From the IMG/VR virus record IMGVR_UViG_3300029305_003510, positions 32,001 through 96,000 of that record: a stretch of 64,000 nt of DNA; one strand, 5' to 3'. Both the position numbers and the translations under genes were made by a program. Positions within the stretch are counted from its first letter, which is position 1, and the number at the start of each line of letters is the position of its first letter. The notes under the pieces are model-generated. The model ran no database searches. It was not told where the DNA came from and saw only the letters and a list, made by a program, of their open reading frames with translations. The stretch comes from a virus (lineage: Duplodnaviria; Caudoviricetes). Positions 9,287-59,456 of the stretch are shown piece by piece.

Positions 9287-9811
9287 TCAGTCTTCATCCC
9301 AGCGAGGCGCAATTCTGAATCCTCTACCAGGCTGAACTTCAAGATCTATACCTCCGAACTTTTTCTTCTTCGGCTTTGTATAATCGCGTTTCCCTCCCTG
9401 AATCCGATAGAACCTTGGATCCTTACCGATGGATAAACCAATACCATGATCAAATGGAGAATCATCATCATCTTCGTATATATAATCGTCTTCATCAAGA
9501 TCATCTTCAGAATCAAAATAGTCGTCATCTTCACTAAAATCTGATGCAGCTAATAATTCACCATGTAATGATGTGATCAAACGATCTGCAACACGAGCAG
9601 ATGCTTCCAAAGTATTGATCATTTCGGCAGCAACTTTTAGTTCATCTTCCAGCATCTTAATTTTCTTACTGGATTTCTTCTTCAAGGTTTCATATTGGGT
9701 TTTCCAATATTCAACTTCATTGGGCTCGCTCTTCGAAACAGTATAAACTGTTTTTGTATCTTCACGTGGAATAAGTTGCATGAAATTATCATGCTTCTTT
9801 GATTTGCTCAT
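9287..9811 (-). CDS. Hypothetical coiled-coil/acidic protein carrying an N-terminal DNFMQLIPR tag
   Basis: 174-aa ORF, AGGAGGAG SD. Confidence 0.8.
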   Translation of the reverse strand: MSKSKKHDNFMQLIPREDTKTVYTVSKSEPNEVEYWKTQYETLKKKSSKKIKMLEDELKVAAEMINTLEASARVADRLITSLHGELLAASDFSEDDDYFDSEDDLDEDDYIYEDDDDSPFDHGIGLSIGKDPRFYRIQGGKRDYTKPKKKKFGGIDLEVQPGRGFRIAPRWDED

Positions 9812-9941
9812 TGCGTACTCCTCCTAATTAGTTGCACCGATATTTTGATCTCGTTCTCTTTCGCATACATAGGTGCAAACGGGCAACTATTAGTAAAAGT
9901 TTTACAACTCCTTTCCACTACAAGTATAATATGTACGTGCT

Positions 9942-10505
9942 TTAAGAGTTGCCCAATTTGCTTGATACTGCTTTTTGCGCGCCCTGATATTTGCCAGTAT
10001 ACAAAGTATCGATCTTACCATGCGGAGTTAAGAAATACACTTGCGCAATAGAAAGATTCGGATAAATCTTAGTGGGGTATGTGACCTTAATCTGTAGAGT
10101 CCATACACCACCAAAACCAATATCTCCAAAACCTGCTTCCTGATGAACCGCGATTCCGAGACGACCGATAGAAGACCGACCGGTAATAATCGGTTCAAAA
10201 TAATCAGTCTTCACGACTTCTTTAGTAGGAACAAGATATAGCATCCCAGGTCGGAGAATAAAACCTTCTTCAGGATCAATCTGAAAAGTCTCCGTATCTT
10301 GGAAGGTTGACTTATCTTTTAAGTCAATCAATGTAAGATTCCGATATACAGTAACAGTATCACCACACCGAAGATTATAACTGTTGGGATTCAAATAAAC
10401 GGGGTCGTAATCAGAAATAAAAATTCGACCAGCTCGAATTTGCTTAGCAATCTCACTCCCGGTTAAAACGCCGCCGGAGAAGTTTACTCTATCTAATAAA
10501 CCCAT
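9942..10505 (-). CDS. dcd: dCTP deaminase (trimeric dUTPase/dCTP deaminase family)
   Basis: Motifs LNPNSYNLR, GRSSIGRLG, GFGDIGFGG-WTL, IAQVYF, YxGKYQG. Confidence 0.85.
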   Translation of the reverse strand: MGLLDRVNFSGGVLTGSEIAKQIRAGRIFISDYDPVYLNPNSYNLRCGDTVTVYRNLTLIDLKDKSTFQDTETFQIDPEEGFILRPGMLYLVPTKEVVKTDYFEPIITGRSSIGRLGIAVHQEAGFGDIGFGGVWTLQIKVTYPTKIYPNLSIAQVYFLTPHGKIDTLYTGKYQGAQKAVSSKLGNS

Positions 10506-10590
10506 AGAGATATCACCATACCTTTCTTATATAACTGTAAGCAATCGAATCAGTAAAGAATTGCTATAAATGTCTTATTTGATAGGCTCG

Positions 10591-10602
10591 AACATCGATA
10601 TA
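10591..10602 (+). promoter_or_regulatory. Late promoter AACATCGATATA
   Basis: AACA-N6-TA upstream of the baseplate operon. Confidence 0.65.
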
Positions 10603-10658
10603 AATTGGATTAACATATAAATCCATGTTTCCTGTCAGAGAAGAGGTGAAATATCAAA

Positions 10659-11981
10659 TTGGCTATTACAGACAAAAGCGATCTGACAAGATTGATCGGA
10701 ACAGCGGCACGCGCTGTATCATCATCTACAGACATTGTAGAGAATCCCAATTCGAATGAAGAAACTCTTATAGAAGCAAAACGAGAACAAGTTTCTGTAA
10801 ATAGTAAAGCACGTTCCATTTATAATACCAAAGCAAATGAGCGAGCAACTATCAATAGAACAATTCCCAAATTGCTTTCTGGTCTCGGTACGAGTGCTGC
10901 TGAAAAAACTCCAGACTTTGACACTTTGGCAAAACAGTATAAAATTCAATACGGACAATCTTATGCGGATTTCACTGATCTGATTGACCATTTCAATCTT
11001 TCACGTCTTCCAAGTTATGAGTCCGTACCGATGCCCTTTATTGGGCATATTATTATGACCCGCCCAAGTCTCTATGTACAACCTTCTACTTCTACATCGT
11101 CTTATAGTGAGTCCAACAGTATTGCTGAAGCACCGAATATGATAAAAAACTTCAACGCATTGAAGAATCATCCAAAGACTTCAGCATTTGTGAATGATGC
11201 ATATGGCCAAAAATTATTGAAGATGCTGAGTGAAAGCAGCAATAGTTATTACATGCCAGTATTCACAACTCGTGCTGCTAGCTATAGCGTAAATGATGTA
11301 CAGTTAAAGACAGTTGAAAAAGGTCAAACATACTATGGTCATACCATTAAATATGCTCACTATAATGAAGAGCATAAGTTTGGTGGATCTATTTCCATCG
11401 ACTTCCGCAATGATTATTATTACAGTATACTGAAGACTGTGTATATTTGGATGGCATATATCGATATCGTATCTCGTGGTGAAATTGTAAAACCGTCCTA
11501 TATTAGCCAAATGAATGGTATTCTGGATTATTGCGGATCAATATATTATCTTGTAACAGATATGAGCATGAGTAAATTGCAGTATTGGGAAAAGCTGACA
11601 GGAGTATTCCCTAGGTCTGCACCCTTCTCTATCTTCAGTTACAATGATATGCCTGGTGTAGAAGATAAGATTTCTATCGAATTTGATTATGGTATGAAAT
11701 CAGATCCTTGTGACCCGAATGTCCTATTTGATCTCAATATGCTTTCCGCCAACTCGTATACACAGGCAGCAAACTTCATGCGATACGGACCCGCGTATCT
11801 GAATCAGCAAAAGACTATCAATTATGCAGATGTAAATCGAAAGTCTGATTGGTCTAAAGCCGTTCGTGCAGATAACTTCAAGGGACCTTTCGGACTTGGT
11901 GATGCTTTTGCTGCAAAACCAATCATTCAAGCAGTGAAGAATGGTAGCACTTTGAACTACTATCTACACTGGCTGCGTTAA
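10659..11981 (+). CDS. Putative baseplate/tail-tube-like structural protein
   Basis: 440 aa; IIMTRPSL and KLTGVFPRSAP motifs resemble tube/initiator proteins of large myophages; late promoter. Confidence 0.55.
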   Translation: MAITDKSDLTRLIGTAARAVSSSTDIVENPNSNEETLIEAKREQVSVNSKARSIYNTKANERATINRTIPKLLSGLGTSAAEKTPDFDTLAKQYKIQYGQSYADFTDLIDHFNLSRLPSYESVPMPFIGHIIMTRPSLYVQPSTSTSSYSESNSIAEAPNMIKNFNALKNHPKTSAFVNDAYGQKLLKMLSESSNSYYMPVFTTRAASYSVNDVQLKTVEKGQTYYGHTIKYAHYNEEHKFGGSISIDFRNDYYYSILKTVYIWMAYIDIVSRGEIVKPSYISQMNGILDYCGSIYYLVTDMSMSKLQYWEKLTGVFPRSAPFSIFSYNDMPGVEDKISIEFDYGMKSDPCDPNVLFDLNMLSANSYTQAANFMRYGPAYLNQQKTINYADVNRKSDWSKAVRADNFKGPFGLGDAFAAKPIIQAVKNGSTLNYYLHWLR

Positions 11982-12010
11982 TTTTATAAACAGGAGGTGA
12001 AATGTAGTTC

Positions 12011-14659: not shown

Positions 14660-14683
14660 AAGTCAAGGAGGCAATGATAAGTC

Positions 14684-15481: not shown

Positions 15482-15488
15482 AAACAAG

Positions 15489-17552: not shown

Positions 17553-18233
17553 TTATACTTCTCCTATTTTCTGGAGAACAATCCTACCAACGGAGATTCC
17601 TTCTTTGATTGTTTTACGGCTCTTCAATTTCTTATAAATGTAATCAGATTCATGCTTCACTAAATATCTAACTGTGATTTCCACACGAGGAAGCAAACTG
17701 TACCATTTACTAATCTCTCCTCGCCAGAAGATATCATCATCTGCAATTAGTACATCAGTGAGCATATCAGTATAGCACTTCTCAATGTTATCATAATCTG
17801 GTTTATCAACTGGATTTAATAATTGCGCCTCAAATAAAATCACCTCATCTGGTGGAACTTTGTTTGGCATTTCAAGGAAAATATTAAAAGATATCTCCGC
17901 AGGAGTGTTGATCATATGCAATGTATCAACAACCTGTTTCATTGCTTTTTCAAAATACTTTTTATTCGCAGATGCATTCGGAGAAAACGTGTGTCCATTG
18001 GCAGTGCGAGGCCTGTCTGTCTTCATAGGATACTCATACAGCACTATTCGAATGGATTCATATTCCCGTTCTTTCATGATAAGAAGTGCCTTCTCACGGG
18101 CTTTCTTGATCCATTTATCTGGATTCTTCTGTGTAGAAAGATATTGACGCACACGCTCTGTTGCATCAGTAATTCGATCATGATACTTTGCATCGTATTC
18201 GGCAAGTTTCTGATCTCGAGATTTAATCTTCAT
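17553..18233 (-). CDS. rusA: RusA-like Holliday junction resolvase
   Basis: RPR motif, KPDYDNIEK..TD.L...LIADDD, K.YS..PRVEI. Confidence 0.85.
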   Translation of the reverse strand: MKIKSRDQKLAEYDAKYHDRITDATERVRQYLSTQKNPDKWIKKAREKALLIMKEREYESIRIVLYEYPMKTDRPRTANGHTFSPNASANKKYFEKAMKQVVDTLHMINTPAEISFNIFLEMPNKVPPDEVILFEAQLLNPVDKPDYDNIEKCYTDMLTDVLIADDDIFWRGEISKWYSLLPRVEITVRYLVKHESDYIYKKLKSRKTIKEGISVGRIVLQKIGEV

Positions 18234-22325: not shown

Positions 22326-25300
22326 TTATATGCTTGTCAACCGGTTAATGGTTAGTGCTCCAACATCCTCGGGATTCTTATCACCATTGGGATAATGAGG
22401 CTGAACCGTAGGGAGACTAGAGTTTGAGTTGATGGAAGATGTGCTATCATCAGCAGTTTTCTCTGTATTCTTACTGATCTTAGTAAGCAGATCCACCATC
22501 GTTGCCATACTAGCAGCAATAACTTGCAGTGCATCAGTGTACTCACCGGGGGCTCCACCAGAAGAACTAGCACCAACAGCTTCAGTAATTTTCTCAGTAA
22601 GAGTGGCAACTGTGCTGTCAGTCTGAGCTTCATCACGAGCTTTATCGAACTGTGCATTAATTCTGCGTACATCAGCCATGATAGCAGAATGACTATCAGA
22701 CATATCCGCAACACCACGACCCCAACCTGGACCAGCACCGGTAGTGGGATTATCGACATTCGCATAGGTATTATAGATCTGTGCGGCGGATTGTGCACGA
22801 GCAGCAAGCTGTTCCTGACCCTTACTGGTACTAGACCAACCACTGTACATCTCAAAGTTATCCAGACCAATCTGAGCGCCATGTTCGGGAGATGTTGCTT
22901 GATTCAATTTCTCTTTAAGTCCGGAGAAAGATGTAGATGTCTCATGCTCAAAGAACTTCAGCTGTGTAGATAGTTCACGCCAGTCAAGGTTGTTATCAAC
23001 CGCAAACTTGAACAAATTATAACCGCGAGGACCAGTCCACTGTGCAAGGCCGATACCTGGATAATAGTTACCATCAGAGCCCTTATATGCGCCTCTATTG
23101 ATACTAATATCAGAGTTATCATATGCGCGGAAAAGTCTCTCAGTCCAATCGTTCAAAGCCGCATTACTGGACAGAACCTGATCATGTCCGGGGAATCCAG
23201 ACAGATAGTCACCTTCAACTCGAGCTGAAGTATTGCCAGATTCATGTTGCCAGCAACCCATAATACCTGCAGCACCTTCAGGTGTGTAACCTTCTTTCTG
23301 CAGATAGTTCCAAATCTCAGATTTATGCTGAGTAGGATCAGTCTTACCGGCAGATGCGCCGAAACTAAAGTTTGTGCCGCCAACAACACCACCGCTAGAA
23401 CCAACTTTACGTCCAGTCGTGACAGTATTGCCATTTTCGTCTACAGTCTCACTACTGAGAGTTCCACCGAGAAGCACGGTCATAATGTCATCCATCTGAC
23501 TACCGATACTACTGAATACGGTACTGAGAGCAGACATAGTATCCATACCAGTCACATCAGGTATACTGCTCCCTGTAGAAGAATATGCTGTTGTCGATCC
23601 AACTACAGCGGTGCCACCCAAACTTGTACCACCAACCATAGCTCGTTGACTCATATCCAAGGGCAGTAGATTATCAATCGATCCCTTACCGTCCTTGGTG
23701 AATGCCCAGAAGTTTTTACCCTCACTTGCAAAAATACTAGGATCCCAAACTTTCTCAGTTCTTGTTGTAGATGCAGGATCATTTACAAGGATCATTCCAT
23801 TTCTCGTACCAACGAGATCGATAAAATGTCCACCATTTGTAAAATGACCTTTACTCATACTAGCAAGAATTGGAACACCAGATGCGAGTGTATCAACAAG
23901 TTGACTGGCAGGAACAGTCTTGATATCAAGACCATATTCTTCAGCAAGTGCAGGGAATAATGCCCATGCTGTGCCGTTATTAGATGTGCGATGGCCGTGT
24001 GCAACAGACCAATCAGCAACACCAGGGGGATCTGCAGGAATACCAAACGATCTAAGAATCATGGCAGCAGACGTGGGACCACATGCAGAAGACTTCATTG
24101 TCTGACTGGAATCCCCGATACTGGAATACATCTTAGTTGCCCAACGAGAGTCGCCCTGGAGATAAAACGGAAAATTATTCTTATACTCTACACTGGTATC
24201 AACATTTGCATCTGTAGCATTCTCGGGAGTTGCTTCATCATCAGCGCCATATCGTTCGGGGCCGCCCTTACCATAGGAGTAAATCGCATTCTTGGTATTA
24301 TCTAACAGGCCCTTCATTGTTGTAGATTTCCGACTACCGGTCAGAGGATCAACGAGACCAACTCCGCCCTTGCCAGTCATCCTATCCGCAACCATGTAGT
24401 GCATATTCTTACCATATGCGCCACCCTTACCCATTACAACAACAGGCTGACCTTTACGCAGATTTGCTGCCATTGCATTGGAATTTACAGGACCTTCAGA
24501 CATACCATAGCCGTGAGATGCAGCATATTGACCAAAGAACGCAGGATTGGTTCCACCATCAGAAGCTCGCATACCCATGCTGTAACTCATACGATTCGCT
24601 TCACCGGGAGTAGAGCCTCGCGCACCGTAAGCGGAAGACACCATAGCAGCAGCAGTAGGGCCGCAACCAGCCTTAGCCATAGCTTGAGAGTCCTGATTCC
24701 ACTTTCCAGAGCGCTGGCTCATAGGAGTGACAGATCCAGTTCCCCATTCAGAGATATCATAACCATCACCGCCACCAAACCAACCCTTCACTGTGCTCCA
24801 TGCATTAGACGCGCCAGTCTTGATCTTATTCCAAACGCCGGATGCGCCAGATTTAATTCTACTCCACATAGAGGTATCCCCAGACTTCGCAGCACTGGAC
24901 GCAACTGCAGCAGTTGCCATTGCAGAACTGATAGAAGCATTAGAACCTTCAGTCTCTTTCATATCAGCAATCAAAGAAGAACCGAGCCCTTCACCGATAA
25001 TACCGAAAATATTCGGAAGCTTCGATTTATCTTTATAGATATCCTGCATCATATTGATCAGTGATTGACCGATACCAAATCCAGCATTTATGATAGTTTC
25101 ACTAAGCTGTTTGGGGTTCTTGATAAACTCAGTAACCTTACCAATGATACCACCGTTTCCGTCAGCACCAGTAACAGAAGCTACCTTATCTTTCACTGCA
25201 CTGGCAATACGAGAAATAATGCCTTGCTGCGCAACTGCAACGCCAGACGGCACTCCCATTCCCCATTCACCATATCCAGGACCGCTACCAAAGATTCCGC

Positions 25301-28300
25301 CAAACCAATTACCAACCGCAGATGCGCCAGATTTAATACCTTCCCAAGCTTTTGTGGCACCTGTTGCAATAGCATTACCGGCCTTTTTAGCACCAGAAGA
25401 TATCGCATCTCCTGCTTTCTGGAAAATATTCTTACGTTCCGAGCCATCAGCATTGTACTTCTTAGCATACTCGTCGACAGTAAGAGATGCATTATTCTCT
25501 GCATTATAGGTATCCGTGGCAGTCTGAAGTTCGGCCTGCTTCTTAGCGAGTTCAGCCTTACCATCTTCATCCTGGAAGATATTGTAGACAGCCTGAACTA
25601 TCTTGTCCATGAACAAAGAAGCAGCAACGCTCAGGAATCCGCCAACACCAGGAATCAGAGAAAGTAATCCACCAAGGGTATTACAGAGACCTGCTGTTAA
25701 ACGCATACCGAGAGTTACATCCTCACCGAAAACATTAAAGTATTTACGAGCATTACCCATGCCACTTGTAAAATCAACGATAGCAAAACCGATAGCAAGA
25801 ATACCACCAGTACCAAAAGCGGCAATTTGCTTAATCGTAGACTTCAGTGTTGACTTTGCACCATCCTTCAATGCCTTCTCAAGAACTTCGCCACTCAGCA
25901 TTGCAACTAGCTTGGATCCCACCTGACCAATCTTTTTAGAGAGTTTGCCAAATGCAGCTTTAACTGTCTTATTGCTCAACAAAGTATCGATCAACTTCTT
26001 AATAGCACTCTTGACAGGACCGGTATCCGTAGCAGCTTCAGCAGCTTCTTTCGCTACAGCGCCAGCTGCAGCTTTTGTACTCTTTCCTGCAGCTATACCA
26101 CCGAGCTTCTCACTCAAACCAGTCATTAGAGAACCGACCTTCTGTGAAGCTTTCGCGCCAAAGTTCATAAGACCATCTTTAACAGCAGTCACACCTTCGA
26201 CAACTTTGCCTCCAACAGCTTTAGCACCATCGGCAACAGCACTACCTCTAATCATATCAAAGAGGCCAGTAACACCAGTTTTCGCATTATCAACAACACC
26301 ACCTACAACTTGACCAATTTTAGTATTGCCAAGCCATTCGACAGCATTACCAATAGCGTTCTTAGTGCCCTGAATGCCTCTACCGATGAAACCACCAGCT
26401 CTGCTGGATCTAGTAGCACCTTCAGCAACATCATCGGGATGAATAATTCCTCGAACGAAATCTCCAACCCTACCAAGACGAGTAGCCGCTTTAGCAGTTT
26501 TTGTCCAGGTCTTAGTACCCCTACGAGTAAGAGAATGAACAGCTTTTTCAGATGCCTCGCCGGCAATCTCTTTCGCAGCATTAGAATCGGACAGCGCAGA
26601 AACGATCTGATTCGGGCTCAGCTTATTCAGACCCAATCCTCTCAAAAGATTAATTCCGAAATTTTCAAGACCCCAAGCCTTATTACCCTTATCACTGAAC
26701 ATATGGAACATGAACGGCAGACCAACAGAAGCAATACCGGACAGTAATCCACCCTTACCGAGCAGGAAGTCCAGAATTCCGTTAGAAGATTTCTCTTCAC
26801 CATCGCCTCCACCAGCTGCAACCAGTTGCCCATTTGCATTCATTTGCTGAGCTGCCATAACAGCTTCAGCTTCTTCCTGTGTCTGAGCAGACTGAATCAT
26901 TTTATCATACTCTTCTGCAGGAGTAGCAGAGGACTCTGCGGATCTATCAGCAGATAGATACTTGCGCTTCCATCTACGGAACCGATCAGCTGCTGCTCTT
27001 GCGGCATTCTTTACATGATCAAGAGGGTTTGGTTTATTCGGCCCGCCACCAGCAGAAGGTGTTCCACTTCCAGGAGCTTTAGGCGCACCAGGCGCTTGTT
27101 TGTTATCATTCGCTGCAGGAAGACCAGGAAGATTGCCAGAATCACCACTAGAGGTAGGTGCATCCTGATCAGAATCAGTACCGTTATCGGTATTGAACTT
27201 AGCGCTCTTCTCTACACCGAGGATATAGACAGGAATTGCATGATTGGATAATTTTCTGGCCATTCCGTTAATAACCGTTACATACGGGAATGGGATACGG
27301 GCATCGCCTCCGATAGCAACAGGTGTTAGACCCTTAACCTCATCAAGATATCCACCATCAATAATGAAGGAACCGATCTTCTTGATTTTGGTTTTGATCT
27401 TATCTACACCTTCACCATCTTCATCATCACCCTTACCAGTGATTTTATTCCAAACCCATTTAACTCCTTTTCCTACACCCTTAGCCGCAAACTTGATACC
27501 CTTGCCTATTCCCTTTCCGACAAACTTCATGCCATCCCAGGCAAGTTTCGCAACATCGGGAGCGATAGCTGCTGCAGTCTCAACAAGACCTCGCACAACG
27601 GAAGAAATACCAAGTATACCATCTTTTAGTACACCAGTAAGTGTACCAAGGATATCACCAAGCGCTTTACCGATACCTTCACCGGCAGCTTTTATCGTTT
27701 TGCCTACACCGACAAGGATTTCTCCAACACCTTGTGCAGCACCCTTCAAAAGTTCGCCGATTGCAGAACCAATCGTCTTAGTAATGCTCCACATGGTTTT
27801 CGCAGCGCCAACAACGCCATCCTTCAACGCTCCAACAGCTTTTCCAAGCAAACGGAACGGATGCATGACAGTATCGATAACTTTACCGACACGTTCTTTG
27901 ACACCACTGAAAACATCGCTTACGGTTTCGGCTACACGATCATAGATCTTACCGAAAATAGTCCGACGCTTCTTTACCTTCTTACTACCTTCCATCTCCT
28001 CGGGAAGTTCTTCATCAGAAAGCTTTCCAAACTTCTTATCGAGAAGTGTTTTGATATAGGCAATATTCCAACCAGTACCACCAAGCTGGCCCTTAATCTC
28101 ACTATAGATCTTGGGGATATCTTTGGTATGCTTGGAGATTGTCTCAAGATATTCATTATCAGACTTCTTTGCTTTGTGTCGTTTAGTAGGAGCTTCCCTA
28201 TCAGCTTTCGCTTTAGATTCACGATCAGCTTTTATCTTTTCAGATTCAGCCTTATCTCTATCTCTTTGAGCAGCTTTATCAGCGCGCTCTTTATCACGCA

Positions 28301-31300
28301 ACTTCTTTCGTTCAGACTGACTATCTCTCTTTTTCTGCTCCTTAGGATCCTCTACAGACTTCCAGTCAGCATCCACATAACTAGGATCTGTATCCGGCAC
28401 CCACTGTCCACCAGGAATGAATCGACCATTCGCATCTCTGTTCTGGACATACTTCATTCCAGCATAAGGATCAGTAGCAGTATTGTCTGTAGATGCATCA
28501 GGAGCTTGTTCGGCTCCAGGTGCAGGTTTAGACCCACCTTTAATCTTATTCCAAGTATCACGGAAGGTTTGTTTCAGTCTCCCGCCGAGTCCTCGACTCT
28601 GTTGTTTCGCTTCTTCCTCAGACGGAGGCTTTTTTCCGAAAAACTGTCCAAAGAATCCACGAACAGTGCCTGTCATATGACCAATAGTCTCTTTCGCTTC
28701 ATTAATCTTCTGCTCTCGTTCAAGTCGAGCCTGTTCTTTCTTATCAGCGCGAGCTTTCTCTTTGCGCTCTTCCGGGGTTTCACCGCCAACCTTACCAGTA
28801 ACAATAAACTCCAATGCTTTAAACGGCGCAGAGATAATATTACCGATAGCCTTACCAATAGCGCTAAAGATTTTGTTAGTTGCATTCTCAAGAGGAGTAA
28901 TTACTTTCTCTTTAAAGAACTCACCAAGAGGCTTACCAACATGTTTCTCAAAAACATTATCGAAGCTCTCTTTAATCTTATCGCCAATATTATGGAAAGA
29001 CTCTTTGATTCGTTCTCCCGCTTCATGCATTTGCTCCTTCAAAGGCTCAATGGAACGGGAAAACGGGCCGACTACATTCTTATCAAACCATTCTCCAACA
29101 GATTTACCCATCTGGTTAATCTTGTTAGACATGGGTGTAAGAATTTTATCTTTCGTAAAATCGAACGCTTTACCGAACAGACCACCTTGGCGTTTCTTGA
29201 CAGTCTTGGTAATTTTATTACCATTTTCATCAGTGGACTCTTCAGTAACATCAGCTTCCTCGCCGAAGAAGAATGAATTGATCTTCTCAGCATTCAGTGC
29301 TCCTGTAAGACCGCCTAAGAATCCGAAGATAGGACCACCGGGAATCAAAGACAGACCGGGAATAATACCGAGACTGGAAATGAGTCCCCAAGCACCAGCA
29401 CCCAGTGTAGCCCCACCAAGAGCGGCTGGGGCTCTATCTTTTATTTCCTTCTTAACCTTCTCTCTGAACTCTTTGCTGATTAAACCAGATTTAGGATCTT
29501 CGATATTACCGAACAAAAGTTCTCGCATCTGATGAGATGCAGTGGTCATTCCACCAAGTGCGCCAATAACTCCGCCAAGCAGAGGACCACCGGGTAAGAA
29601 CATACTACCAATGACACCGATAGCAGCACCTTTACCCATAGCAGGCGCATACTGTTTGAATGCATCAGTAACAGTACGATCAATAAGGCCAGACTTAGTC
29701 TGTTTCTTTCGCGTGACCTTCTTACCAGTAAGAGGATCCACCACCGGCTTCATCCGACCTGGATTCTTGGGATCTGGCATCATGACATCTTCAACATCAT
29801 CACCAAATTCACCAAACAGGAAAGACTTTAGCTTATCAGAACCAGCAACAAGACTGGCTCCACTACCAAGAACCATTCCCAGAATAGGGCCACCAGGTAA
29901 AAAGAGACTTCCGAGAAGACCCGCACCAGCGCCAATGACCATATCAGGAAAAGCTTTATTAACTTCATCTTTAACAAGCTTAAACTTCTCCCGAGAACCG
30001 TGGTCATCGCCATTAGCATCTGGACCAAAAAGCATATCAGTGAAATCATCGGTAGCTTTCTTTATCTTACCACCAATGCCGTAGTAGCCCATATAGTCCT
30101 CGCCATTCTCACCATGTACATACTTTACACCTTTACGAGGACTATCCGCAGCTTCGCCCCAGAGGAGCCTGTCGATTAAACCAGCACCTTCAGTTTTGGT
30201 TCCATCTTTAATACCGCGAACTTTACCTCGTATTTGGTTATATGCATCACTAAAACGGCCACCACTATATTCACCAGTGAAATTGCCCTCTTCGTCAAGA
30301 ACTTTATTACCGATAAACTTGGACTTAATGCGACCGCCGAATTCTTTAGCTCGATTCTTAACCGGATCCACAACTTTCTCAAAGAGTCGATTTTTAATCC
30401 TTGGGATCAAACCGGTCTCTTTATTGAAAAGAGAATCCTTTAACGGTTCACCAATGTGTTCAGCAAACCAACTTCTTGCATCCATCCAGTGCGCCTTTAC
30501 CGAAGCAGTTACAGTGCGCATAAGACTGGGTACTTCATCAGTGCTATTAAGATACGATTCCGCATCTTCACCGTAGATGATCTTAAATAAGAATGCATCA
30601 ATGGTCTCAAGCCCCTGATTCATAAGAGCGAACGGAGCTTTTGTCATTGCACCCTTTAGATTATCTAAGAAGCCCTTATCTGGACTAATTCCCAAACGCT
30701 CTTTAAACTTATCACTATGAGAAGTGATTAGTCTACGAGTAGCCTCAATCTGAGGATTGTCCGATGTCCCAGGAGCCGTATTCTTTATCTGTAATGCTTC
30801 CTGGTATGCCATAATCGTTTCGAGAGGTGTATCCTTATCAATAATAAGTTCGTCAAGAGAACGAACCTTATCAATTTCAGCCTGCCTCTTTTGTCTATCG
30901 CTACGCTCACGACGCTCACGTTCCTGACGCCGAGCAGTTGCACCATTTTCCGCTTGCACTTTTCTATCAAGACTATCACGAACAGTTTGAGCATCTTTGA
31001 GAGCTTCTGTAAGCATCGGGTTACCAGATGTGCTTACATTGCCAGTTTCATTACCGATAATGTAAGTGTATGTGATAATACCTCGGCGCAATGTTGTAAG
31101 AATATCATTTGCAATGATATTAGTAGCATTTACGCCTCCCATTGTCAAGTTCCGAGCATGTGCTTTCTTGACAATATCATCACGCTCATCTTCCGTTAAA
31201 CCATATCGACGTCTCTTAGACTCATACTCAAGACTATTTGCAGTCTCTTTATCGAGCATTCCAGAGAAGATAATACCAAGACCACTTGTAGCAAGCTCGT

Positions 31301-35096: not shown

Positions 35097-35462
35097 TTAG
35101 GCTCTGGGGACAAGAACCATAAACCCATCTGTATCACGAACGCCCTCTTTAGTCTTCTTGATCTTCTTATCTTTCACACGCTGATTATAATTAGCTCGGA
35201 TCTTGCCGATCAGATCACTAACCTCAGCGGCACCAGCGTTAATGATTACAGACAGAATCTCTTCATCTCTGGCCTCTTTTCCGTATACAGGAATAGCCAG
35301 CAGAGCCACAATCAGGTCACGATTAACATCTTTCATCACAACCTGAGTAGTCTTTTTACTCTCAGACTTTGCAAGCAACATTGCACGTACATCTGCAGCC
35401 ATATCAATATTCATCCTTTCTCTCGGAGTTATTATTTTGTCTGCTGATAAATCAATAAACAA
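35097..35462 (-). CDS. Hypothetical protein with C-terminal RDTDGFMVLVPR tag
   Basis: 121-aa ORF (true start probably at MNIDM). Confidence 0.75.
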   Translation of the reverse strand: MFIDLSADKIITPRERMNIDMAADVRAMLLAKSESKKTTQVVMKDVNRDLIVALLAIPVYGKEARDEEILSVIINAGAAEVSDLIGKIRANYNQRVKDKKIKKTKEGVRDTDGFMVLVPRA

Positions 35463-41235: not shown

Positions 41236-41904
41236 TTAGAATTGGTACAGATCGTAAGCTTTCATAAAGTCATTCATATCAGACTTATAAGTTTCAACAG
41301 ATCCATCTCGTTTATAAACGAGAATCTTGAATTTGAAATCATAGTCTGTATACGCACAACATTGAGCCTGTATCTCATAAACACCCTCCACACCTTTTCG
41401 GTGGAAGTTTATGAAATTGGCAAGCTCATTAATATTATCAATGACAGTATCAGTTTGGTATACGTCCATTACCTCAACTTCACCGTCATATGATGCACGG
41501 AGTTTAAAACTGATAGCAATCTTATCAATCTCCATCAGTCTTAGATATGCTTTTAGAGAAATACGCATATACATATGCTCAGTTGCATTAACCAGCACAT
41601 ATAGATCATCATACTTTTTCTGAAGCTCTTTCAACTTCTTGAGATCAAATCGAGTGCTACTAATAATAACCTTGGGTTTACCATCTTTACTATAAATAGC
41701 AAGATTGTCAAACTTCACAAAATGGAAGTCCTTTACAAAACGGCTGGACTTCCATTTCTTGAGTTTCTTCCAAAGCCAATGCTTCCAAGAACCCTTCTTA
41801 AACTCAGGAGCTTTAATCTCTTTCTCTTTTGATTTCTTATCTTTCTTCGATTTCTCTTCACTCTTACGCGGAACGAGAGTGAAGAACTCATCTTTCTTGC
41901 TCAC
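41236..41904 (-). CDS. Hypothetical protein with N-terminal DEFFTLVPR tag
   Basis: 222-aa ORF overlapping the upstream stop codon (translational coupling). Confidence 0.8.
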   Translation of the reverse strand: MSKKDEFFTLVPRKSEEKSKKDKKSKEKEIKAPEFKKGSWKHWLWKKLKKWKSSRFVKDFHFVKFDNLAIYSKDGKPKVIISSTRFDLKKLKELQKKYDDLYVLVNATEHMYMRISLKAYLRLMEIDKIAISFKLRASYDGEVEVMDVYQTDTVIDNINELANFINFHRKGVEGVYEIQAQCCAYTDYDFKFKILVYKRDGSVETYKSDMNDFMKAYDLYQF

Positions 41905-42626
41905 AACGTCACCCTTCCTTTCTCGTCTACGTTGATATTGAGTAAATCAAAAATCTTCTGAGGATTACCAGCTACGACATCGTATGTATAGTCATCATAC
42001 ACAACAATAGCTTTCAATGTTATAGTAACCACCTCAAGATGCTCTTTATTACACATTTTAATATAGCGATCAATATTTACGTACATCATACGCTGAATGA
42101 TCTCAAGAGCTTGTTTTAATTCAGATGGCGTATCTATAATGAGATACGGAAATGATGAATTATCTGTATCAGTTGCCAGATGATCTAACACTTTACTTTT
42201 ACCACCAATATCCATCTCAGCTCTGACCCGACACATAATACCAACACGTTTGATATGTCGAACTTTTCTAGAACATTCACATTTAGCAAATGTTCCGGAA
42301 GATCGTTTCCAGTCAATAGTCTTCCCTACATTATTCCAAGCTTTATTTTGCCAAGCTTTCCGATTATATGCAGTGACTAATCTTTTAAACCCGGTATTAT
42401 TCTGATAGTCGCTAGCATAAATACGATATGTAGTAGCTCTGGTGTTCTGTTCACCTGGAGATACTCGGCCTTTCGGATAATATAAATAATTATCACCAAC
42501 AGGTAGACCTTTTCTGGGAGATGCGATTTCACCAGGTTCATTCTTAGAATCAAATGATATATCTGATCCAATTCGTTTTAGAATAATGAACCCATCGTCA
42601 TCTCGATATTGACTCTTTTTACTCAC
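41901..42626 (-). CDS. Hypothetical basic protein with N-terminal RDDDGFIILKRI tag
   Basis: 241-aa ORF, GGAGG SD. Confidence 0.8.
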   Translation of the reverse strand: MSKKSQYRDDDGFIILKRIGSDISFDSKNEPGEIASPRKGLPVGDNYLYYPKGRVSPGEQNTRATTYRIYASDYQNNTGFKRLVTAYNRKAWQNKAWNNVGKTIDWKRSSGTFAKCECSRKVRHIKRVGIMCRVRAEMDIGGKSKVLDHLATDTDNSSFPYLIIDTPSELKQALEIIQRMMYVNIDRYIKMCNKEHLEVVTITLKAIVVYDDYTYDVVAGNPQKIFDLLNINVDEKGRVTL

Positions 42627-44453: not shown

Positions 44454-44511
44454 CTTTCTTTTTCGCCTATATACTATAATGATGAAGATTATAGAAGAAA
44501 GGAGGACATGT

Positions 44512-45147
44512 ATGGGCAATTCGCCAGAGTATATTGTCTTCACAGATGCGTCATTGAGACGAAATAAGACAAGATCCTATTGTGCTTTCGGTGTTGTTGT
44601 ATTAAATCTAAAGACACTGGAATACGCCTCATTTGGGGCAGAGTTAGGAAGCCGCACAGTTACGTTTGGAGAGGGCTGGGCGGTGTATCGTGGAATTCAA
44701 GCTGTCTGTAATATCGTTGATAAGAAACGGAAAGATCCCATACAGATTTTAGTGGTGACGGACAGTAAGCTTACAGTGAAAGTTTTAAGTGAGTATATCC
44801 CGTTTGTGTGGGATACAAAAAATTGGGAGAACTGGAAGAAAGTAGATGGTTCTCCAGTAAAGAATCAAGGATTATATCGAAAGATAGTGGCATTGATTAA
44901 TGATCATCCCGAGATCCATCCTCGCATTGCTCATATCAATTCTCATCAGTCAGATAATGATTGGGAGAAGATTCAGAGTAAGTTGAAGAAGTATGGTATC
45001 AATGCTGACCCAAAAACAACACGTGTCTTTATGAATATGAATGATCTGGCAGATTCTATCTGTCAGGGCATCACAAAGAAGATGCGAGATGAAGAAGAGA
45101 AGACCGGTGAATTTATCCGGTTAATACCGAAAGGAGAACTAAAATGA
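44512..45147 (+). CDS. rnhA: Ribonuclease HI-like protein with C-terminal GEFIRLIPK tag
   Basis: FTDAS, GE..AV, TDSK, WKK.DG.PVKN..L, HINSH, N..AD; ATG at 44512 after AGGAGG. Confidence 0.85.
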   Translation: MGNSPEYIVFTDASLRRNKTRSYCAFGVVVLNLKTLEYASFGAELGSRTVTFGEGWAVYRGIQAVCNIVDKKRKDPIQILVVTDSKLTVKVLSEYIPFVWDTKNWENWKKVDGSPVKNQGLYRKIVALINDHPEIHPRIAHINSHQSDNDWEKIQSKLKKYGINADPKTTRVFMNMNDLADSICQGITKKMRDEEEKTGEFIRLIPKGELK

Positions 45148-45533
45148 GAATGTTATTGGTAGGCCAAGCTAAAGATAGTAATGACATCGTCTATGGTGTA
45201 TCTCTTAACGGAAAAACTCTTGTAGAAATACTCGGAACATCACAAGGACCAATCACTCCTGCTGAATTAGTTCGGATCTGCAAAGAAAATGATTGTAAGA
45301 TTACAGCCGAACAGTATTTCACATATGCGAGCCTATTTATTAGGGTTATGACCGCACATCAATATGTATCATGGACAAGAGAGTCTATGAATGGTATTAT
45401 TGCAATGATGCAAGATGAGGATTGTGAGGGTATGTTGGATGAGTTTTTCAATTCTGACAACTATCCTCTCATGGAAGATCTTATGGGAGTCTTTGCTGAT
45501 ACTGACACATATCAGATTGTCCCGAAGGATTAA
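45144..45533 (+). CDS. Hypothetical protein
   Basis: 129-aa ORF coupled to the RNase H gene. Confidence 0.75.
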   Translation: MRMLLVGQAKDSNDIVYGVSLNGKTLVEILGTSQGPITPAELVRICKENDCKITAEQYFTYASLFIRVMTAHQYVSWTRESMNGIIAMMQDEDCEGMLDEFFNSDNYPLMEDLMGVFADTDTYQIVPKD

Positions 45534-49734: not shown

Positions 49735-50580
49735 GTGAGGACAATAGCCTTCATATATGAAGATCCGAATAGAGATCGACAAGGTTTCTATAAATTGAAA
49801 CGAACCTATAGCGATCTGTATAAGAAAGTAAATTATACAACACCTGTACAGATGGTGCAGAACAGAATCATTGAGTATGATATTAAATCTGCAAATATCA
49901 GCATGCTTCGACAAGCGGGTGTGGTTAAAAGTTCTACATTGGATGAATTAGAGAAACTCCCTAAGAAAGACCGACAAGTATTAATCGGTAAAATGCAGAA
50001 ACTTGACCCGAAACTGAAGAAGGTTATTGCCCGTGGAATCATTCAGGCTAAACATGATTTATTCCAAGCAAATGGAATCCAGGATAGTGAAGTGTTATCT
50101 ATTAAAAATGATGCACTTTTCATCGCTGGAAGGCGTTTGAAATATACAAAGTTTGGTGAGGTTGAGTTTAGGCCTAAGAACACGTATTCTTTCTATATCA
50201 AAATTGAAGGGATTGAGTTCTATTATGATTCTAAAAATGATATAGTTGCTGTTAAAGGTGTGAATGATTCAATAGTTGAACATCCAGATCATCAGGAAGG
50301 TATGATTCGATTCTTTGCAAAAGTTATGAAATTCATGGTATATGATCATCGTGATGCTTTGCGAAGATATCTGATTGAATTTTCTGATGACTATAAGAAC
50401 AAACGCCTTCCGGTACAATACTATCGTGAGTTTGGTAGCGCTAATATTTACCGGACAAATATGGGCATCGCTGAATATAGTTTTAATTTGGTTGCTGCAG
50501 GCGAAGATGATAAAGAGATCATCAATGGTGTGTTCAATTATATGAAGTTTGTACTTCCACTTATACAGACATTTATTTAG
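49735..50580 (+). CDS. Minimal family-B DNA polymerase palm-like protein with N-terminal RDRQGFYKLKR tag
   Basis: IIEYDIKSAN (motif A-like) and SIKNDALF (motif C-like); no exonuclease domain. Confidence 0.5.
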   Translation: MRTIAFIYEDPNRDRQGFYKLKRTYSDLYKKVNYTTPVQMVQNRIIEYDIKSANISMLRQAGVVKSSTLDELEKLPKKDRQVLIGKMQKLDPKLKKVIARGIIQAKHDLFQANGIQDSEVLSIKNDALFIAGRRLKYTKFGEVEFRPKNTYSFYIKIEGIEFYYDSKNDIVAVKGVNDSIVEHPDHQEGMIRFFAKVMKFMVYDHRDALRRYLIEFSDDYKNKRLPVQYYREFGSANIYRTNMGIAEYSFNLVAAGEDDKEIINGVFNYMKFVLPLIQTFI

Positions 50581-54311: not shown

Positions 54312-54331
54312 AGAGAGGTGCACAATTACTC

Positions 54332-55219: not shown

Positions 55220-55236
55220 TGAGGAGGGATTGACCA

Positions 55237-56481
55237 ATGGCGGAAAGGATTCTCAACGAGGCTCAGCAGAAAGAGCTGTTCCGCCTCATCGGTGATCCTG
55301 AAAAGTTGGATGCTCATATCATTGCAAATTTATTTGCTTATATGAAAGATGGCGGTATTAAGTATCATCCTGATGATATTATTACCATTGGACCAAATGA
55401 GTCGAAGTTTGTAAAACCCAATACGAAGACTACAATCGGTATCTATCTAGCAAATAAGTATATCTGGGAAGATCTGGCCATCTTCGGGTATATCAATAAA
55501 CCCGTTACTGGCAAGGTAAATGGCAAGATTGATACCGCAATGGCAAAAGCTTTGATGTCTGGTGATATTACACGGGAGCAATATGGTCGTTATATTGATC
55601 GTACACAGTGGTTATATGGTGGTCCTCTTGCTTTTATTATCAATACTTCCTTATCGGAAACTTTGATCACTCTTCCTCCGGCTGCTAAAGCTCAGAAGAA
55701 GAAGCTCCTTGAAGAAAATCGAGAAGGCATTGAAGCGAATGATCCTCAGGTGTCTACTCATATTGAACATGAAGTTGTTAAGACTGCATTGGATGAAATG
55801 AGGAAAAAGAATGACCCTGCTATGGCATTGTTTGATGCCGGTTGCGGTATTGATCCATATAACCAATATAAGACAATTATGGTTATGAAGGGTGCTGTTC
55901 AGGATAATACAGGCGAATCTCCTACGGGATATAAGGTCATTACATCTAACTATGATACCGGTATCACTAAAGAAGATATGCCGAAAATCGCTGATACAGT
56001 TGTTACGTCATCCTATTCTTCTGGCGTTGCTACACAGGACTCCGGTACAAACGGAAAGAAATATAACGCTTTGTTTCAGCGAGTTCGACTTCAAAAGCGC
56101 GGTTCTGATTGTAGCACAACCGAGACGATTGCCGTTGATATCACAAAGGATAATGCAGACGACTATACCTGGCGGTATATCGTCGAAGGTAGTTCTAACG
56201 GTAGTAAGGGCAAACTTGTGATGCTTACTCCAGAAAATATTGACTCCTACATCGGCAAGACAGTAAAGATGCGCACCGGTATCTACTGTAAGGCGAAAGA
56301 CCCTGAGTATTGTTCTTGCTGTATTGGCGACAGACCATATCGTATCGGTGTGCGTAATATTGGGTTTACGTTTATGACTATTTCAGGCTCTACCTTAAAT
56401 GCTTCCTTGAAGCGTAAACATGACGTAAGCGTGAAGTTATATCCGATACAGATATCCGATGTGATGAAATATGTGATGTAA
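55237..56481 (+). CDS. Phage RNA polymerase beta'-like subunit fragment (bridge helix/Zn-binding region)
   Basis: GVATQDSG (cf. ALKTADSG bridge helix), DCSTT (cf. DCGT), VKMRTG.YC.....YCSCC.G (cf. VRS..C....C..CYG). Confidence 0.8.
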   Translation: MAERILNEAQQKELFRLIGDPEKLDAHIIANLFAYMKDGGIKYHPDDIITIGPNESKFVKPNTKTTIGIYLANKYIWEDLAIFGYINKPVTGKVNGKIDTAMAKALMSGDITREQYGRYIDRTQWLYGGPLAFIINTSLSETLITLPPAAKAQKKKLLEENREGIEANDPQVSTHIEHEVVKTALDEMRKKNDPAMALFDAGCGIDPYNQYKTIMVMKGAVQDNTGESPTGYKVITSNYDTGITKEDMPKIADTVVTSSYSSGVATQDSGTNGKKYNALFQRVRLQKRGSDCSTTETIAVDITKDNADDYTWRYIVEGSSNGSKGKLVMLTPENIDSYIGKTVKMRTGIYCKAKDPEYCSCCIGDRPYRIGVRNIGFTFMTISGSTLNASLKRKHDVSVKLYPIQISDVMKYVM

Positions 56482-56593
56482 TAAATCCCCACTGGTCTTA
56501 ATTGATCAGTGGGGTAACATTTTGTATGAAAGGCGGAGAAAAAGAATCGGATGAAGGTTACCGATTCTTTGAGATGTGTTATGTTGATGGAAG

Positions 56594-56785
56594 TTATCCG
56601 ACAACAATGCGACCCATATTGCCATATAAAGGCTCAGGACCAGGTTTACGATATTCAACAACAGGGAGCTCATCACTCAAATCTGTGTTGAAATTGTCGA
56701 TTTTCATGTGTTCACAACATTCTTTTAAATGCATAAACGTCTCGACCAATCATTCCATCGAAGGATATTCCGCGTTGGTTCCCAT
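56594..56785 (-). pseudogene. Small ORF interrupted by an in-frame TGA at codon 12
   Basis: Strong SD (AAGGAGGAG) and early motif upstream; translates as MGTNAEYPSME*LVETF...IVVG*. Confidence 0.45.
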
Positions 56786-56980
56786 AATATCTCCTCCTTT
56801 CATACATAAAATGGAGAGAGGGTAGTGTCAGTACCCTCTCTCCATGCCTTCATTATTATAGTATATATGCGAAAGTTATGTTAAATTGGAAAAGTGCAGA
56901 GAGCCCAAATTGGGCTCTCTATTTTATTCTTAGCAGTTTCCTAACTTAGGTATAACACCCACTCGAAGGAGGTAATTATA

Positions 56981-57646
56981 TTGCTTGCGCACAAGGTAAA
57001 TGAAGATGCACGACTGTTTTTCTTTGAGGTAAAATATCCTGAAGAATACGGTGTATGGTACCCCACATATGATCAGGATATCGAATATCTGAAATCTCGA
57101 ATCCTGACTTATCGTTCCGCTCATACGACTGAGATGGATATGGAGACCAGTCAGTATTATGAAGGTGCAAAAACGCTCATTGAAGTTTTCGATCTGTTCA
57201 TGGCTACCGGCATCGCAACTATCTGTAAAGATATGAATGTACTGATCGAGAATATCAAAGAGCCGGAACATTTTGATCATGCAGAAGTTCAGTTTCATAT
57301 GATCTATGATCAAACACAGGTTGATGATAACGGGAAAATGACAAGTTCTGCTAAAGGTGATTATAAAATCACTCTTATCTATACTCGTGAAACCAATAAT
57401 CCCTGTGGTATTTTCCTGATCTATGGAGAGAATCTCGATAATGGTAATACCTTTACCGTTGGAGATACTCTGGTATCTAAAATCGGGCTGACTACTGATC
57501 ATTTAAACTGGTTGGACGAGGGTGCAAAATGTTTTCCTGCTGGTCCGATTCTGAAGTATAGTGAGAACTTTCCTATATATGCTACACTAGCTAATCAGAT
57601 CATGGATCGTCTGAAGGATACGTTAGATATTATTGTGTATGATTAA
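56981..57646 (+). CDS. Hypothetical protein
   Basis: 221-aa ORF, AAGGAGG SD, TTG start. Confidence 0.8.
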   Translation: MLAHKVNEDARLFFFEVKYPEEYGVWYPTYDQDIEYLKSRILTYRSAHTTEMDMETSQYYEGAKTLIEVFDLFMATGIATICKDMNVLIENIKEPEHFDHAEVQFHMIYDQTQVDDNGKMTSSAKGDYKITLIYTRETNNPCGIFLIYGENLDNGNTFTVGDTLVSKIGLTTDHLNWLDEGAKCFPAGPILKYSENFPIYATLANQIMDRLKDTLDIIVYD

Positions 57647-57663
57647 TAAGAATTGAGAGGTGA

Positions 57664-58383
57664 ATGGTTTTGACTGATATGAAGTCGATTACAGTCATTA
57701 AACGTGATGGTCGTGAGGTTGAATTCAATTACGATCGTATTACGAAAGCTATCAAGTCAGCAATGATTGCTGTGAATCCGCAGGGTTATATTAATGGTAT
57801 TCCAGTTGAGCTTGCTGCTGCGAATGTCAAAGACGATGTTGTTTACGATATCGAGAAGTCCTTGCGATCTGATGCAGATAAAAAGATCACTGTAGAAGCA
57901 ATCCAGGATCTCGTTGAAGAAGCTCTTATTCGTTTAGGCTATTCTGATATTGCCAGAGCGTACATCATCTATAGACAGAATCGTAATCGTGCACGCAATT
58001 ATAAATCTGATATGATGAATATTATGCGTGAGATTACATATTCTGATGCTGTTGATGCTGATATTAAACGCGAGAATGGTAATATCAATGCTGACTCTCC
58101 TATGGGAGCTATGCTCAAGTATGGTTCTGAAGTATCCAAACAGTTTGCGCATCAGGATCTTCTTACACCCGAACATAGCAAGGCTCATATGGAGGGAGAC
58201 TGTCAAATACATGATTTGGATTTCCTTGCTACTGGTACATTGACTTGTAATCAGATTGATATTATCGAACTTTTTAAGGATGGGTTTTCTACAGGGCACG
58301 GATATCTTAGAGAACCTGGTTCGATTCGATCTTATGCAGCTCTTGCATGTATTGCGATTCAGGCAGAGCAGAATGATATGCAT
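57664..58383 (+). CDS. nrdD: Anaerobic (class III) ribonucleotide reductase large subunit, exon 1 (with ATP cone)
   Basis: VIKRDG ATP cone, ENGN, H..G..IHDLDF, TC.QI, QAEQNDMH. Confidence 0.93.
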
Positions 58384-59456
58384 TTCGGTGTGTAAATTTA
58401 CATTATTTCATTTTGATTAATGTAATATTTATATAATGTGGTGCCGCCATATAGGAAACTTATGGTGGAAACTCCGTAAACCTGTGATCCGCAGGGTGTG
58501 AAGATAACGAATAGTTACATCAGGAAATGGGTGTTTAATATCTTTGCTAACCGGGAACTGCAAGTGTGACGACTTGTTAATCCGGTGCCACGTTCAAATT
58601 TATTTATACCATCACATTCATATTCTATAGGAAAGGAGGGTGCATTATGAGCAAAGTTCAGGTTAATACATTATGGTCATTGGAAAACATAAAAGACCAA
58701 TACATATTTGATACTGAAACTCTTGATATTACAAATATATGGAGTGGCAGAATTATTTCTGTGTATATAGATAAACGTGGATATCCTGCTGTATCTATGA
58801 GTTTGAAAAATCCAACAAAAACTGGCAGAAGATATGCTAATGTAAAATATCATAAAATTATTGCATTAGCATGTATAAACAATGGTCCATATAAGCTCAT
58901 TGAACATCTTGATGATAATCCATTAAACTTTCATCCGAGCAATCTTAAGTTTTCAACTCAAACCGAAAATGCAAAAACTATGCGTGCAAATGGAATCAAT
59001 AATCATATTGATTCAATCTTTGAGTTGATGCTAACAGATGGAACGAAGTATATTGGAACAACAAAAGAGATTTCAGAGCAAAGCGGTATTCGCAGAGGCG
59101 CCATATATGATAAGATGTATCAGCGATATGATAAATCTCATACAAGGACTCAGCGAAAATATAATATACAACACGTTAAACTTCTCTATTCTGGGAATGA
59201 GCGGAGGAACGCTACAAAGAAAGAAAAGGTGCTACGGGAAAGGGATAGTGATGGGTTCCTTATCCTACATAGAATTAATAATTTGAACAGGTTCAGAGAC
59301 TAACGAAAGGATAGCCGGCGCATAAGGTTTGAGTCTTATCAACTCTTAACGGCGAGTAACCGAGTAGTGTTAGCTCCGAGATGGATACGGGAGCGAAAAT
59401 GGAGGGCCCTAACTAGGTGAAGCTAGAGGGCTGAGATATAGTCCGTTGGCCCGACG
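58384..59456 (+). mobile_element. Group I intron in nrdD carrying an HNH homing endonuclease
   Basis: P1 ATGCAT|TTCG-GTGTGT with U.G at the splice site; R element TCAGAGACTA, S element AGATATAGTCC (P7 GACTA/TAGTC); terminal G; splicing restores NDMH|GGQS. Confidence 0.9.
58647..59303 (+). CDS. Intron-encoded HNH homing endonuclease with C-terminal RDSDGFLILHRI tag
   Basis: GY..V.L, HKIIA, EH.DDN.LN...SNL...T..EN. Confidence 0.85.
   Translation: MSKVQVNTLWSLENIKDQYIFDTETLDITNIWSGRIISVYIDKRGYPAVSMSLKNPTKTGRRYANVKYHKIIALACINNGPYKLIEHLDDNPLNFHPSNLKFSTQTENAKTMRANGINNHIDSIFELMLTDGTKYIGTTKEISEQSGIRRGAIYDKMYQRYDKSHTRTQRKYNIQHVKLLYSGNERRNATKKEKVLRERDSDGFLILHRINNLNRFRD

Follow-up and report, generated by a model that had tools for sequence, protein, structure and literature searches.

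In eukaryotes and archaea, polymerase, ligase, RNase H2, FEN1 and helicases are among the clients that reach the sliding clamp PCNA through a PIP box (PCNA-interacting protein box). In phage T4, the polymerase gp43, DNA ligase and gp33, which is associated with RNA polymerase (RNAP), share an LDFLF-type motif that binds the clamp gp45, located at the C-terminal end of gp43 and in a loop of the ligase (PMC6212786). The B-family polymerases of T4 and RB69 have their clamp-binding peptide at the C-terminal end (PMC6212786), the same site as the tail of the polymerase half DNAP-C considered below. Jumbo phages of group 1 (phiKZ/AR9-type) have been described as lacking a classical clamp (PMC7824862). 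Two preprints of October 2026 show that in PhiKZ Rhc an RNase H is covalently joined to a clamp-like domain; this domain attaches to DNAP-C as a lone subunit and stimulates synthesis (PMC13648687; 10.64898/2026.10.01.755736). The present analysis concerns a short peptide, here called the tag, that recurs near the ends of unrelated proteins of an uncultured gut jumbo phage known from the linear IMG/VR virus record IMGVR_UViG_3300029305_003510 (230,855 bp, estimated completeness 89%). The window is the 64,000-nucleotide stretch comprising bases 32001-96000 of that record, and positions are those of the window unless marked as genome positions. The tag is a clade-wide short linear motif and very probably a docking handle for one shared partner, and the chances are even that this partner is a clamp-fold polymerase subunit of 245 amino acids (aa).

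The tag is a real, enriched, terminal, appended and conserved motif. In full, its consensus reads [RK]-D-x-[DENQ]-G-F-x-x-L-x-[PR]-[RKT]; the reduced core is F-x-x-L-x-[PR]-[RKI], and a short form without the glycine is F-x-x-L-[IV]-P-[RK]. It is built of an acidic turn (D-x-D-G), an aromatic residue and a leucine three apart (F-x-x-L), a proline or arginine, and a basic residue. Across the whole genome, for which 225 genes covering 90% of the sequence were roughly called for this analysis, the pattern D.[DENQ]GF..L occurs 15 times compared to 0.14 in shuffled proteins, and F..L[IVM]P[RKT] occurs eight times compared to 0.22. A position weight matrix, trained on its own matches, gave 24 matches of at least 15 bits in the 72,204 residues of gene frames, one in 186,793 residues of other frames, and 0.35 in shuffled proteomes; the plain pattern counts serve as the independent test. 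Of 22 copies, sixteen are located no more than 40 residues from the end of their protein, where 25% would be expected (p = 3e-6), and internal copies exist, such as one at residue 126 of 279. The codons vary among copies, and the tag is therefore not a DNA repeat. All-against-all BLASTP of the carriers revealed no similarity outside the tag, with one weak exception: a 405-aa protein (genome 25371-26588) and the 281-aa protein described below match over 81 N-terminal residues from the tag onward (26% identity, E = 0.004). Judged from this alignment, the two may share an N-terminal module that extends beyond the tag. The first-pass annotation, made from the letters of the window, had proposed a terminal tag on otherwise unrelated proteins. 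Both parts of that proposal hold, apart from the one weak match, and every peptide it listed was recovered by translation at its place and on its strand with small corrections of range, including the weak copies on RusA and on a 129-aa protein.

The tag is also kept by orthologues as the flanking residues drift. A close match to the phage was not found among GenBank phages by megablast with 8 kb of the window or by tblastn with the clamp-like protein and RNase H; its relatives in databases are contigs from metagenomes, 220-260 kb long, one of which is labelled 'uncultured Duncaniella'. The related contigs named below are numbered L031 to L040. Orthologues from L031, L033, L035 and L036 carry the tag at the same end. 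One carrier is a divergent DnaB-type (DnaB-like) helicase, encoded elsewhere in the genome and tagged at its C-terminus, for which the tag is kept in nearly all of 120 homologues with 61-100% identity. In an alignment of 90 of these proteins, conservation reaches 90% or more at D576, G579 and L583, and the rest of the tail is variable.

RNase H (gene 44479-45147) carries TGEFIRLIPK at 45103-45132 on the plus strand, four residues from its C-terminus. The Pfam RNase_H domain spans residues 17-159 and the tag starts at residue 209, outside the catalytic domain, at whose last helix ordinary RNase H proteins end. Relatives down to approximately 30% identity have the tail variants FRLVPRK, FMQLVPRR, FIQLRPK and HLKWKK. 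The strict core is present in 14 of 44 tails from relatives with E < 1e-14, compared to 3 of 65 tails from more distant ones. Taken together, retention of the tag amid drifting flanks and its location outside catalytic domains support the earlier proposal of a short linear motif, and the tag behaves as one under selection.

Some relatives of the helicase (P0060-P0068) have a second conserved C-terminal peptide behind the tag, F-x-[MV]-[ED]-[ED]-A-I-x-x-R-K-K-G, and another group ends in S-[ML]-Y-R. By their sequences, these extra peptides look like further linear motifs.

Several carriers in the window bear the tag at the N-terminus. An unannotated 222-aa protein (gene 41236-41904) has KDEFFTLVPR as residues 4-13 (41866-41895, minus strand), and its orthologues begin with MFDSDGYFHLEAK in L031 and MKMAETFKLIRKK in L035. 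The 281-aa protein (gene 49735-50580), a member of phrog_21037, for which PHROG gives the function as unknown, has RDRQGFYKLKRT as residues 13-24 (49771-49806, plus strand), and the N-termini of its orthologues keep RDSDGFIVLKKT and GTDGFIHLTHK. For both proteins, the N-terminal tag is retained in four divergent contigs. The N-terminal tags are evidently translated, since the orthologues start with an ATG just upstream of the tag. The label 'PolB-like' given to the 281-aa protein could not be verified; it has no Pfam or PDB match, and an AlphaFold2 model built from three sequences reached a predicted local distance difference test score (pLDDT) of only 52, too poor for use. An unannotated 241-aa protein (gene 41901-42626), without a match in Pfam and PHROG searches, has RDDDGFIILKRI as residues 8-19 (42570-42605, minus strand). 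Its orthologue in L031 has the N-terminal variant KTLTWTK, and a scan of viral contigs yielded no relatives. An unannotated, charged 174-aa protein (gene 9287-9811) has HDNFMQLIPR as residues 7-16 (9764-9793, minus strand) and a near-copy of the tag, GFRIAPR, at its C-terminus. The tag of an unannotated protein of 105-121 aa (gene 35097-35462) is C-terminal, with RDTDGFMVLVPR at 35103-35138 on the minus strand, one residue from the end; the range first assigned to it, 35097-35138, also takes in an alanine and the stop codon.

Weaker variants extend this set. RusA (gene 17553-18233) has GRIVLQKI three residues from its C-terminus (17565-17588, minus strand), and its Pfam RusA domain extends to residue 189. 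Near its C-terminus, the NrdG-type radical-SAM activase (gene 61148-61666) has GRPVLAKI (61628-61651, plus strand), which the first-pass annotation did not list. A copy at the C-terminus of the 129-aa protein (gene 45144-45533), DTYQIVPK at 45504-45527 on the plus strand, is doubtful, its spacing being one residue short of the core. The string L-x-K-I-G ends three proteins: RusA (GRIVLQKIGEV), NrdG (GRPVLAKIGDQI) and a dihydrofolate reductase (DHFR) fusion (IYRKIGRT; genome 111917-113020). The proteome contains 15 strings of this kind, three of them C-terminal compared to approximately 0.2 expected. The string may be a degenerate tag that extends to enzymes of nucleotide metabolism, as judged from these C-terminal sequences; NrdG of the relative L038 lacks L-x-K-I-G.

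The carriers as a whole span replication, repair, transcription, a diversity-generating retroelement (DGR) and homing endonucleases. In addition to the helicase, those encoded elsewhere in the genome include a second HNH endonuclease and a PC4-like protein, both tagged at the C-terminus, GyrA/ParC and a superfamily 2 (SF2) helicase, both tagged at the N-terminus, and an NAD ligase with the tag in its N-terminal region. The DGR reverse transcriptase (RT) has two copies, and an adjoining 326-aa protein, a putative Avd, is tagged as well. A phrog_2943 'polymerase' protein has four tandem tags in its last 100 residues. Its assignment as an RNA polymerase is based on the PHROG label and an SHxGR...PGLTG signature spotted by eye; tblastn against 75 kb of PhiKZ, including gp55, gp68 and gp71-74, gave no match, nor did BLASTP against PhiKZ gp68 or a search with Rpb2_3. 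The claim that the identifiable carriers act on nucleic acids is borne out by RNase H, the HNH endonucleases, the helicases, GyrA/ParC, the ligase, the PC4-like protein and the DGR RT.

Structural proteins do not carry the tag, as had also been noticed at first, and neither do NrdD, FolD, dCTP deaminase and the LAGLIDADG endonuclease. Two further hits are probable chance matches, ILRPGMLYLVPTKE within dCTP deaminase and VPVPDFNVLIPTVQ within a 633-665-aa protein adjoining a tail-tube-like gene. Two proteins of RNA-polymerase beta type in the window are likewise without the tag. One, of 414 aa (55237-56481), matches PhiKZ in the region of gp80, which is a subunit of the virion RNAP, and the other, of 1439 aa (35569-39888), matches RNAP beta PHROGs. 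One uninterrupted open frame of 3571 codons is located among virion-type genes (22326-33041, minus strand).

Tag-like C-termini were also observed on two proteins of related contigs. In L039, a 181-aa protein (10921-11466, plus strand) encoded directly after the clamp-like gene has a clear C-terminal tag, DKNGFARLIPK, and a cysteine-rich N-terminus that by eye is nuclease-like. In L040, a 179-aa protein (7111-7650, minus strand) encoded between the two polymerase genes has a weak match to sigma-70 region 4 and ends in the tag-like NLNGFLLLMMR, reminiscent of the tails by which late-transcription proteins of T4 bind the clamp.

The tag also occurs on selfish elements. In the window, nrdD is split into 57664-58395 and 59502-61151, with nrdG following at 61148-61666; between the two nrdD halves lies the gene of an HNH endonuclease (58647-59303) that has RDSDGFLILHRI in its C-terminal tail (59241-59276, plus strand). 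This gene order is the layout of an intron with a homing endonuclease. A clear tag is absent from all 11 relatives of the intron HNH endonuclease, among them proteins of similar jumbo phages, and the tag therefore looks like a recent addition; the first-pass annotation had named absence from HNH homologues elsewhere as a check. It had also proposed that the tag grants access to phage DNA. The tag on selfish elements favors this idea, but an obligatory role does not stand, given the HNH relatives without a clear copy and the untagged LAGLIDADG endonuclease, which the annotation had itself raised as a counterpoint.

The best candidate for the partner is encoded outside the window. The replication module of this genome is of the phiKZ/AR9 type, with a split divergent B-family polymerase (divDNApol), here DNAP-N and DNAP-C, and a divergent DnaB (divDNAB). 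At genome 173671-174408, on the minus strand, a gene whose start overlaps the end and stop codon of the DNAP-N gene encodes a 245-aa protein. Its AlphaFold2 model (pLDDT 90.4, predicted template modelling score 0.85) was compared with the PDB, and the top 50 matches were all PCNA/9-1-1-type clamps, with Z of 10-12, a root-mean-square deviation of approximately 4 Å and approximately 200 of 245 residues aligned; UL42 and beta clamps were also among the top structure matches. In a library of viral structures, the matches were T4-type clamps, a herpesvirus processivity factor and a 492-aa 'ribonuclease H' of the phiKZ-like phage Noxifer, which is long enough for an RNase H-clamp fusion. In L038, L039 and L040, too, the clamp-like gene follows DNAP-N. 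As modelled, the 245-aa protein has a two-domain PCNA-type clamp fold, and it is genetically tied to the polymerase. At the sequence level, a profile search of PDB sequences returned only noise and hhalign against PhiKZ gp155 returned nothing; the known clamp families PF09116 (gp45) and PF00712 (beta clamp) have no match in the genome.

The polymerase itself provides a possible link between tag and clamp-like protein. In five lineages, DNAP-C ends in an invariant YY[TA][SN]I[IV]RI, preceded by a Gly/Ser linker that varies. This tail fits the core [FY]-x-x-[LI]-x-R-I, as do GFIILKRI and GFLILHRI, and only two proteins besides DNAP-C have the relaxed core at their extreme C-terminus. An internal DNAP-C match, RPEDGKISLRRTYK (21.6 bits), is not counted as a tag, as it is without an aromatic residue and lies inside a folded, conserved block. 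In L037, a 61%-identical relative, the DNAP-C frame is interrupted approximately 300 bases upstream of the DTDS catalytic motif and continues in a different frame (226-529), which could reflect an intron or a frameshift.

Two genes after DNAP-C, at genome 182141-183121, lies the gene of a Gly/Gln-rich 326-aa protein that is without a family match and resembles a single-stranded DNA-binding protein (SSB). It has a conserved acidic C-terminal tail, P-V-D-[IL]-N-L ... F, and no tag, with counterparts at L039:2270-3259 and L040:1655-2653; to judge by its sequence, the tail looks like the partner-binding tail of SSB.

Among described systems, the tag is most like the PIP box, a short motif on the disordered tails, at either end, of many unrelated replication and repair enzymes, and the candidate receptor here has the PCNA fold. 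It differs in that the tag is unrelated to Q-x-x-[LIVM]-x-x-[FY]-[FY], an RFC-like loader was not found in this genome, and the phage carriers also include a retroelement and homing endonucleases. As with gp45 of T4 and RB69, a ligase and a PHROG 'polymerase' protein are tagged, the end of DNAP-C is tag-like, and the clamp fold is phage-encoded; unlike gp45, the clamp-like protein has no similarity to PF09116, the motif is another one, a gp44/62-type loader was not found in the genome, and the client set is larger and more varied. PhiKZ and Goslar, in which Rhc is the processivity subunit of the split PolB, share the module of split divergent PolB and divergent DnaB as well as a clamp-fold protein tied to the polymerase. 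Here, however, the clamp-like protein stands alone, has no hhalign-detectable similarity to the clamp domain of PhiKZ gp155, and is accompanied by a separate, tag-ended RNase H. An unfused RNase H that ends in the tag is what would be predicted if the tag replaces the covalent link of PhiKZ. The accessible parts of PMC13648687 and 10.64898/2026.10.01.755736 contain no description of a shared client tag, and a published description of the tag was not found in the literature.

The herpesvirus factors UL42 and UL44 also offer a parallel, as a loader-free clamp fold bound by the extreme C-terminus of a B-family polymerase; UL42 is one of the PDB matches noted above. To our knowledge, herpesvirus factors are not hubs for some twenty clients with one common motif. 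The nucleus of chimalliviruses involves related jumbo phages and the same class of cargo, DNA-acting proteins, but chimallin was not detected in this genome. By mechanism, the tag would be a variant on the principle of the PIP box and the gp45-binding tail, in which both the sequence and the receptor are new and the range of clients is unusually wide.

In the proposed mechanism, the tag on flexible N- or C-terminal tails would tether approximately twenty unrelated phage proteins to one phage-encoded partner. The 245-aa PCNA-fold protein would be that partner, in the manner of PCNA with its PIP-box clients or of gp45 with the T4 tails. The polymerase would hold this clamp-like subunit through its own C-terminal YY-x-x-I-[IV]-R-I, and further enzymes would reach replicating DNA by the same clamp-like surface, with the handle copied by selfish elements. 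The clamp-like protein might act as a ring or, like PhiKZ Rhc, as a monomer. We infer both that there is a single partner and that it is the 245-aa protein, and the binding is a prediction. A broader scheme, held here tentatively and at somewhat less than an even chance, is a proteome-wide docking code of PhiKZ/AR9-type jumbo phages, in which a single clamp-derived polymerase subunit serves as the common landing pad of the DGR and of proteins for replication, repair and transcription, homing endonucleases have copied the peptide and so reach replicating phage DNA, and the PhiKZ fusion is a hard-wired version of the link. Of the hubs suggested at first (clamp, SSB, or a shell or import factor), the clamp gains circumstantial support from the PCNA-fold gene beside the polymerase, the DNAP-C tail and the PhiKZ fusion; for import, chimallin was not detected, and the SSB-like protein has a tail of its own.

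Several observations weigh against docking on the clamp-like protein. The consensus of the tag fits none of the consensus sequences of the PIP box, APIM (AlkB homologue 2 PCNA-interacting motif), T4 LDFLF (as quoted in PMC6212786) and bacterial QL[SD]LF. A clamp loader was not found in the record, which is 89% complete, as PF13177 gave nothing and PF00004 only two Walker-A fragments. This makes a loaded ring doubtful; the clamp-like protein may instead be a monomer of the Rhc or UL42 type, which would be a less obvious hub for twenty clients. The canonical D-G-F tag is in neither polymerase half, and the version at the end of DNAP-C has the core only. The clamp-like protein evolves fast: in one relative it is 50% identical, compared to 87% for the helicase, and over this distance the tag is stable. 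NrdG and the DHFR fusion, which have possible weak copies, are not DNA enzymes, and the gene calls are crude. A 341-aa P-loop protein encoded after DNAP-C was considered as a loader and rejected; it has GKDT and IRE-x-E motifs, and its best PHROG match is a dNMP kinase. Prediction of a complex between three copies of the clamp-like protein and helicase residues 556-595, both supplied as alignments, scored 0.00, below the threshold, and is informative neither way.

Because the evidence for a common selected motif would fit equally well, the tag might instead dock on another phage partner, such as the DnaB-like helicase, an RNA polymerase, the SSB-like 326-aa protein or a scaffold, with the clamp-like protein a mere polymerase subunit. 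The fast divergence of the clamp-like protein is consistent with this alternative, as is the action of PhiKZ Rhc as a single polymerase-bound subunit and not a ring hub (PMC13648687), and the majority of genes in this genome are unannotated. It is nonetheless rather unlikely. The helicase and the phrog_2943 protein carry the tag themselves, an acidic tail ending in phenylalanine as in the SSB-like protein is typical of a tail donor and not of a receptor, and none of the alternative candidates has a fold known for receiving client peptides. The DNAP-C tail and the RNase H fusion of PhiKZ likewise favor the clamp-like protein.

The nature of the carriers raises a second alternative, that the tag is a localisation signal for import into a replication compartment or partitioning into a condensate. 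Selfish nucleases, the DGR RT, the putative Avd and a PC4-like single-stranded DNA binder match the needs of a DNA compartment, tandem copies, four in one tail, would suit avidity-driven partitioning, and a phiKZ-type replication module is present. The canonical tag is, however, on neither polymerase half, and the RNAP-type proteins examined in the window are also without it. The chimallin profile PF25677, which recognises PhiKZ gp54 and is centred on Phikzvirus, has no match with E up to 10 in this 89% complete record, although a very divergent shell protein could have escaped it. A localisation signal is improbable.

Recruitment of a host hub (the host beta clamp, SSB or a chaperone) by a phage without a loadable clamp of its own is decidedly improbable. 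Neither a clamp loader nor a canonical clamp family was detected in the genome, and the database names on relatives ('uncultured Duncaniella') suggest a Bacteroidales-type host, but the motif is unlike the bacterial clamp-binding QL[SD]LF and the phage has its own clamp-fold protein. The weakest alternative is that the tag has no docking role and serves as a degron or as a site of proteolysis or modification, or that it is a small structural hairpin that has been reused through chance of descent. This is very unlikely: as read from the sequences, the D-x-D-G turn and hydrophobic strand could make a beta-hairpin, and some copies are internal, yet the conserved stretch is only approximately 12 residues and no domain-sized block, a cleavage site would be odd at 4-8 residues from the N-terminus of stable enzymes, and the carriers are non-homologous.

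Finally, docking of the tagged proteins on the clamp-fold polymerase subunit, if true, would show how the replisome is organised in a large group of uncultured gut jumbo phages without the textbook clamp and loader families, and would tie the processivity subunit Rhc of PhiKZ to a wider client network. It would provide a one-line sequence rule that flags unannotated proteins working at phage DNA, and the tag offers a ready means of pulling down and localising proteins in phages that are not yet cultivable. It would also be a clear case of selfish elements, the HNH endonucleases and the DGR, taking over the docking peptide of their host phage.

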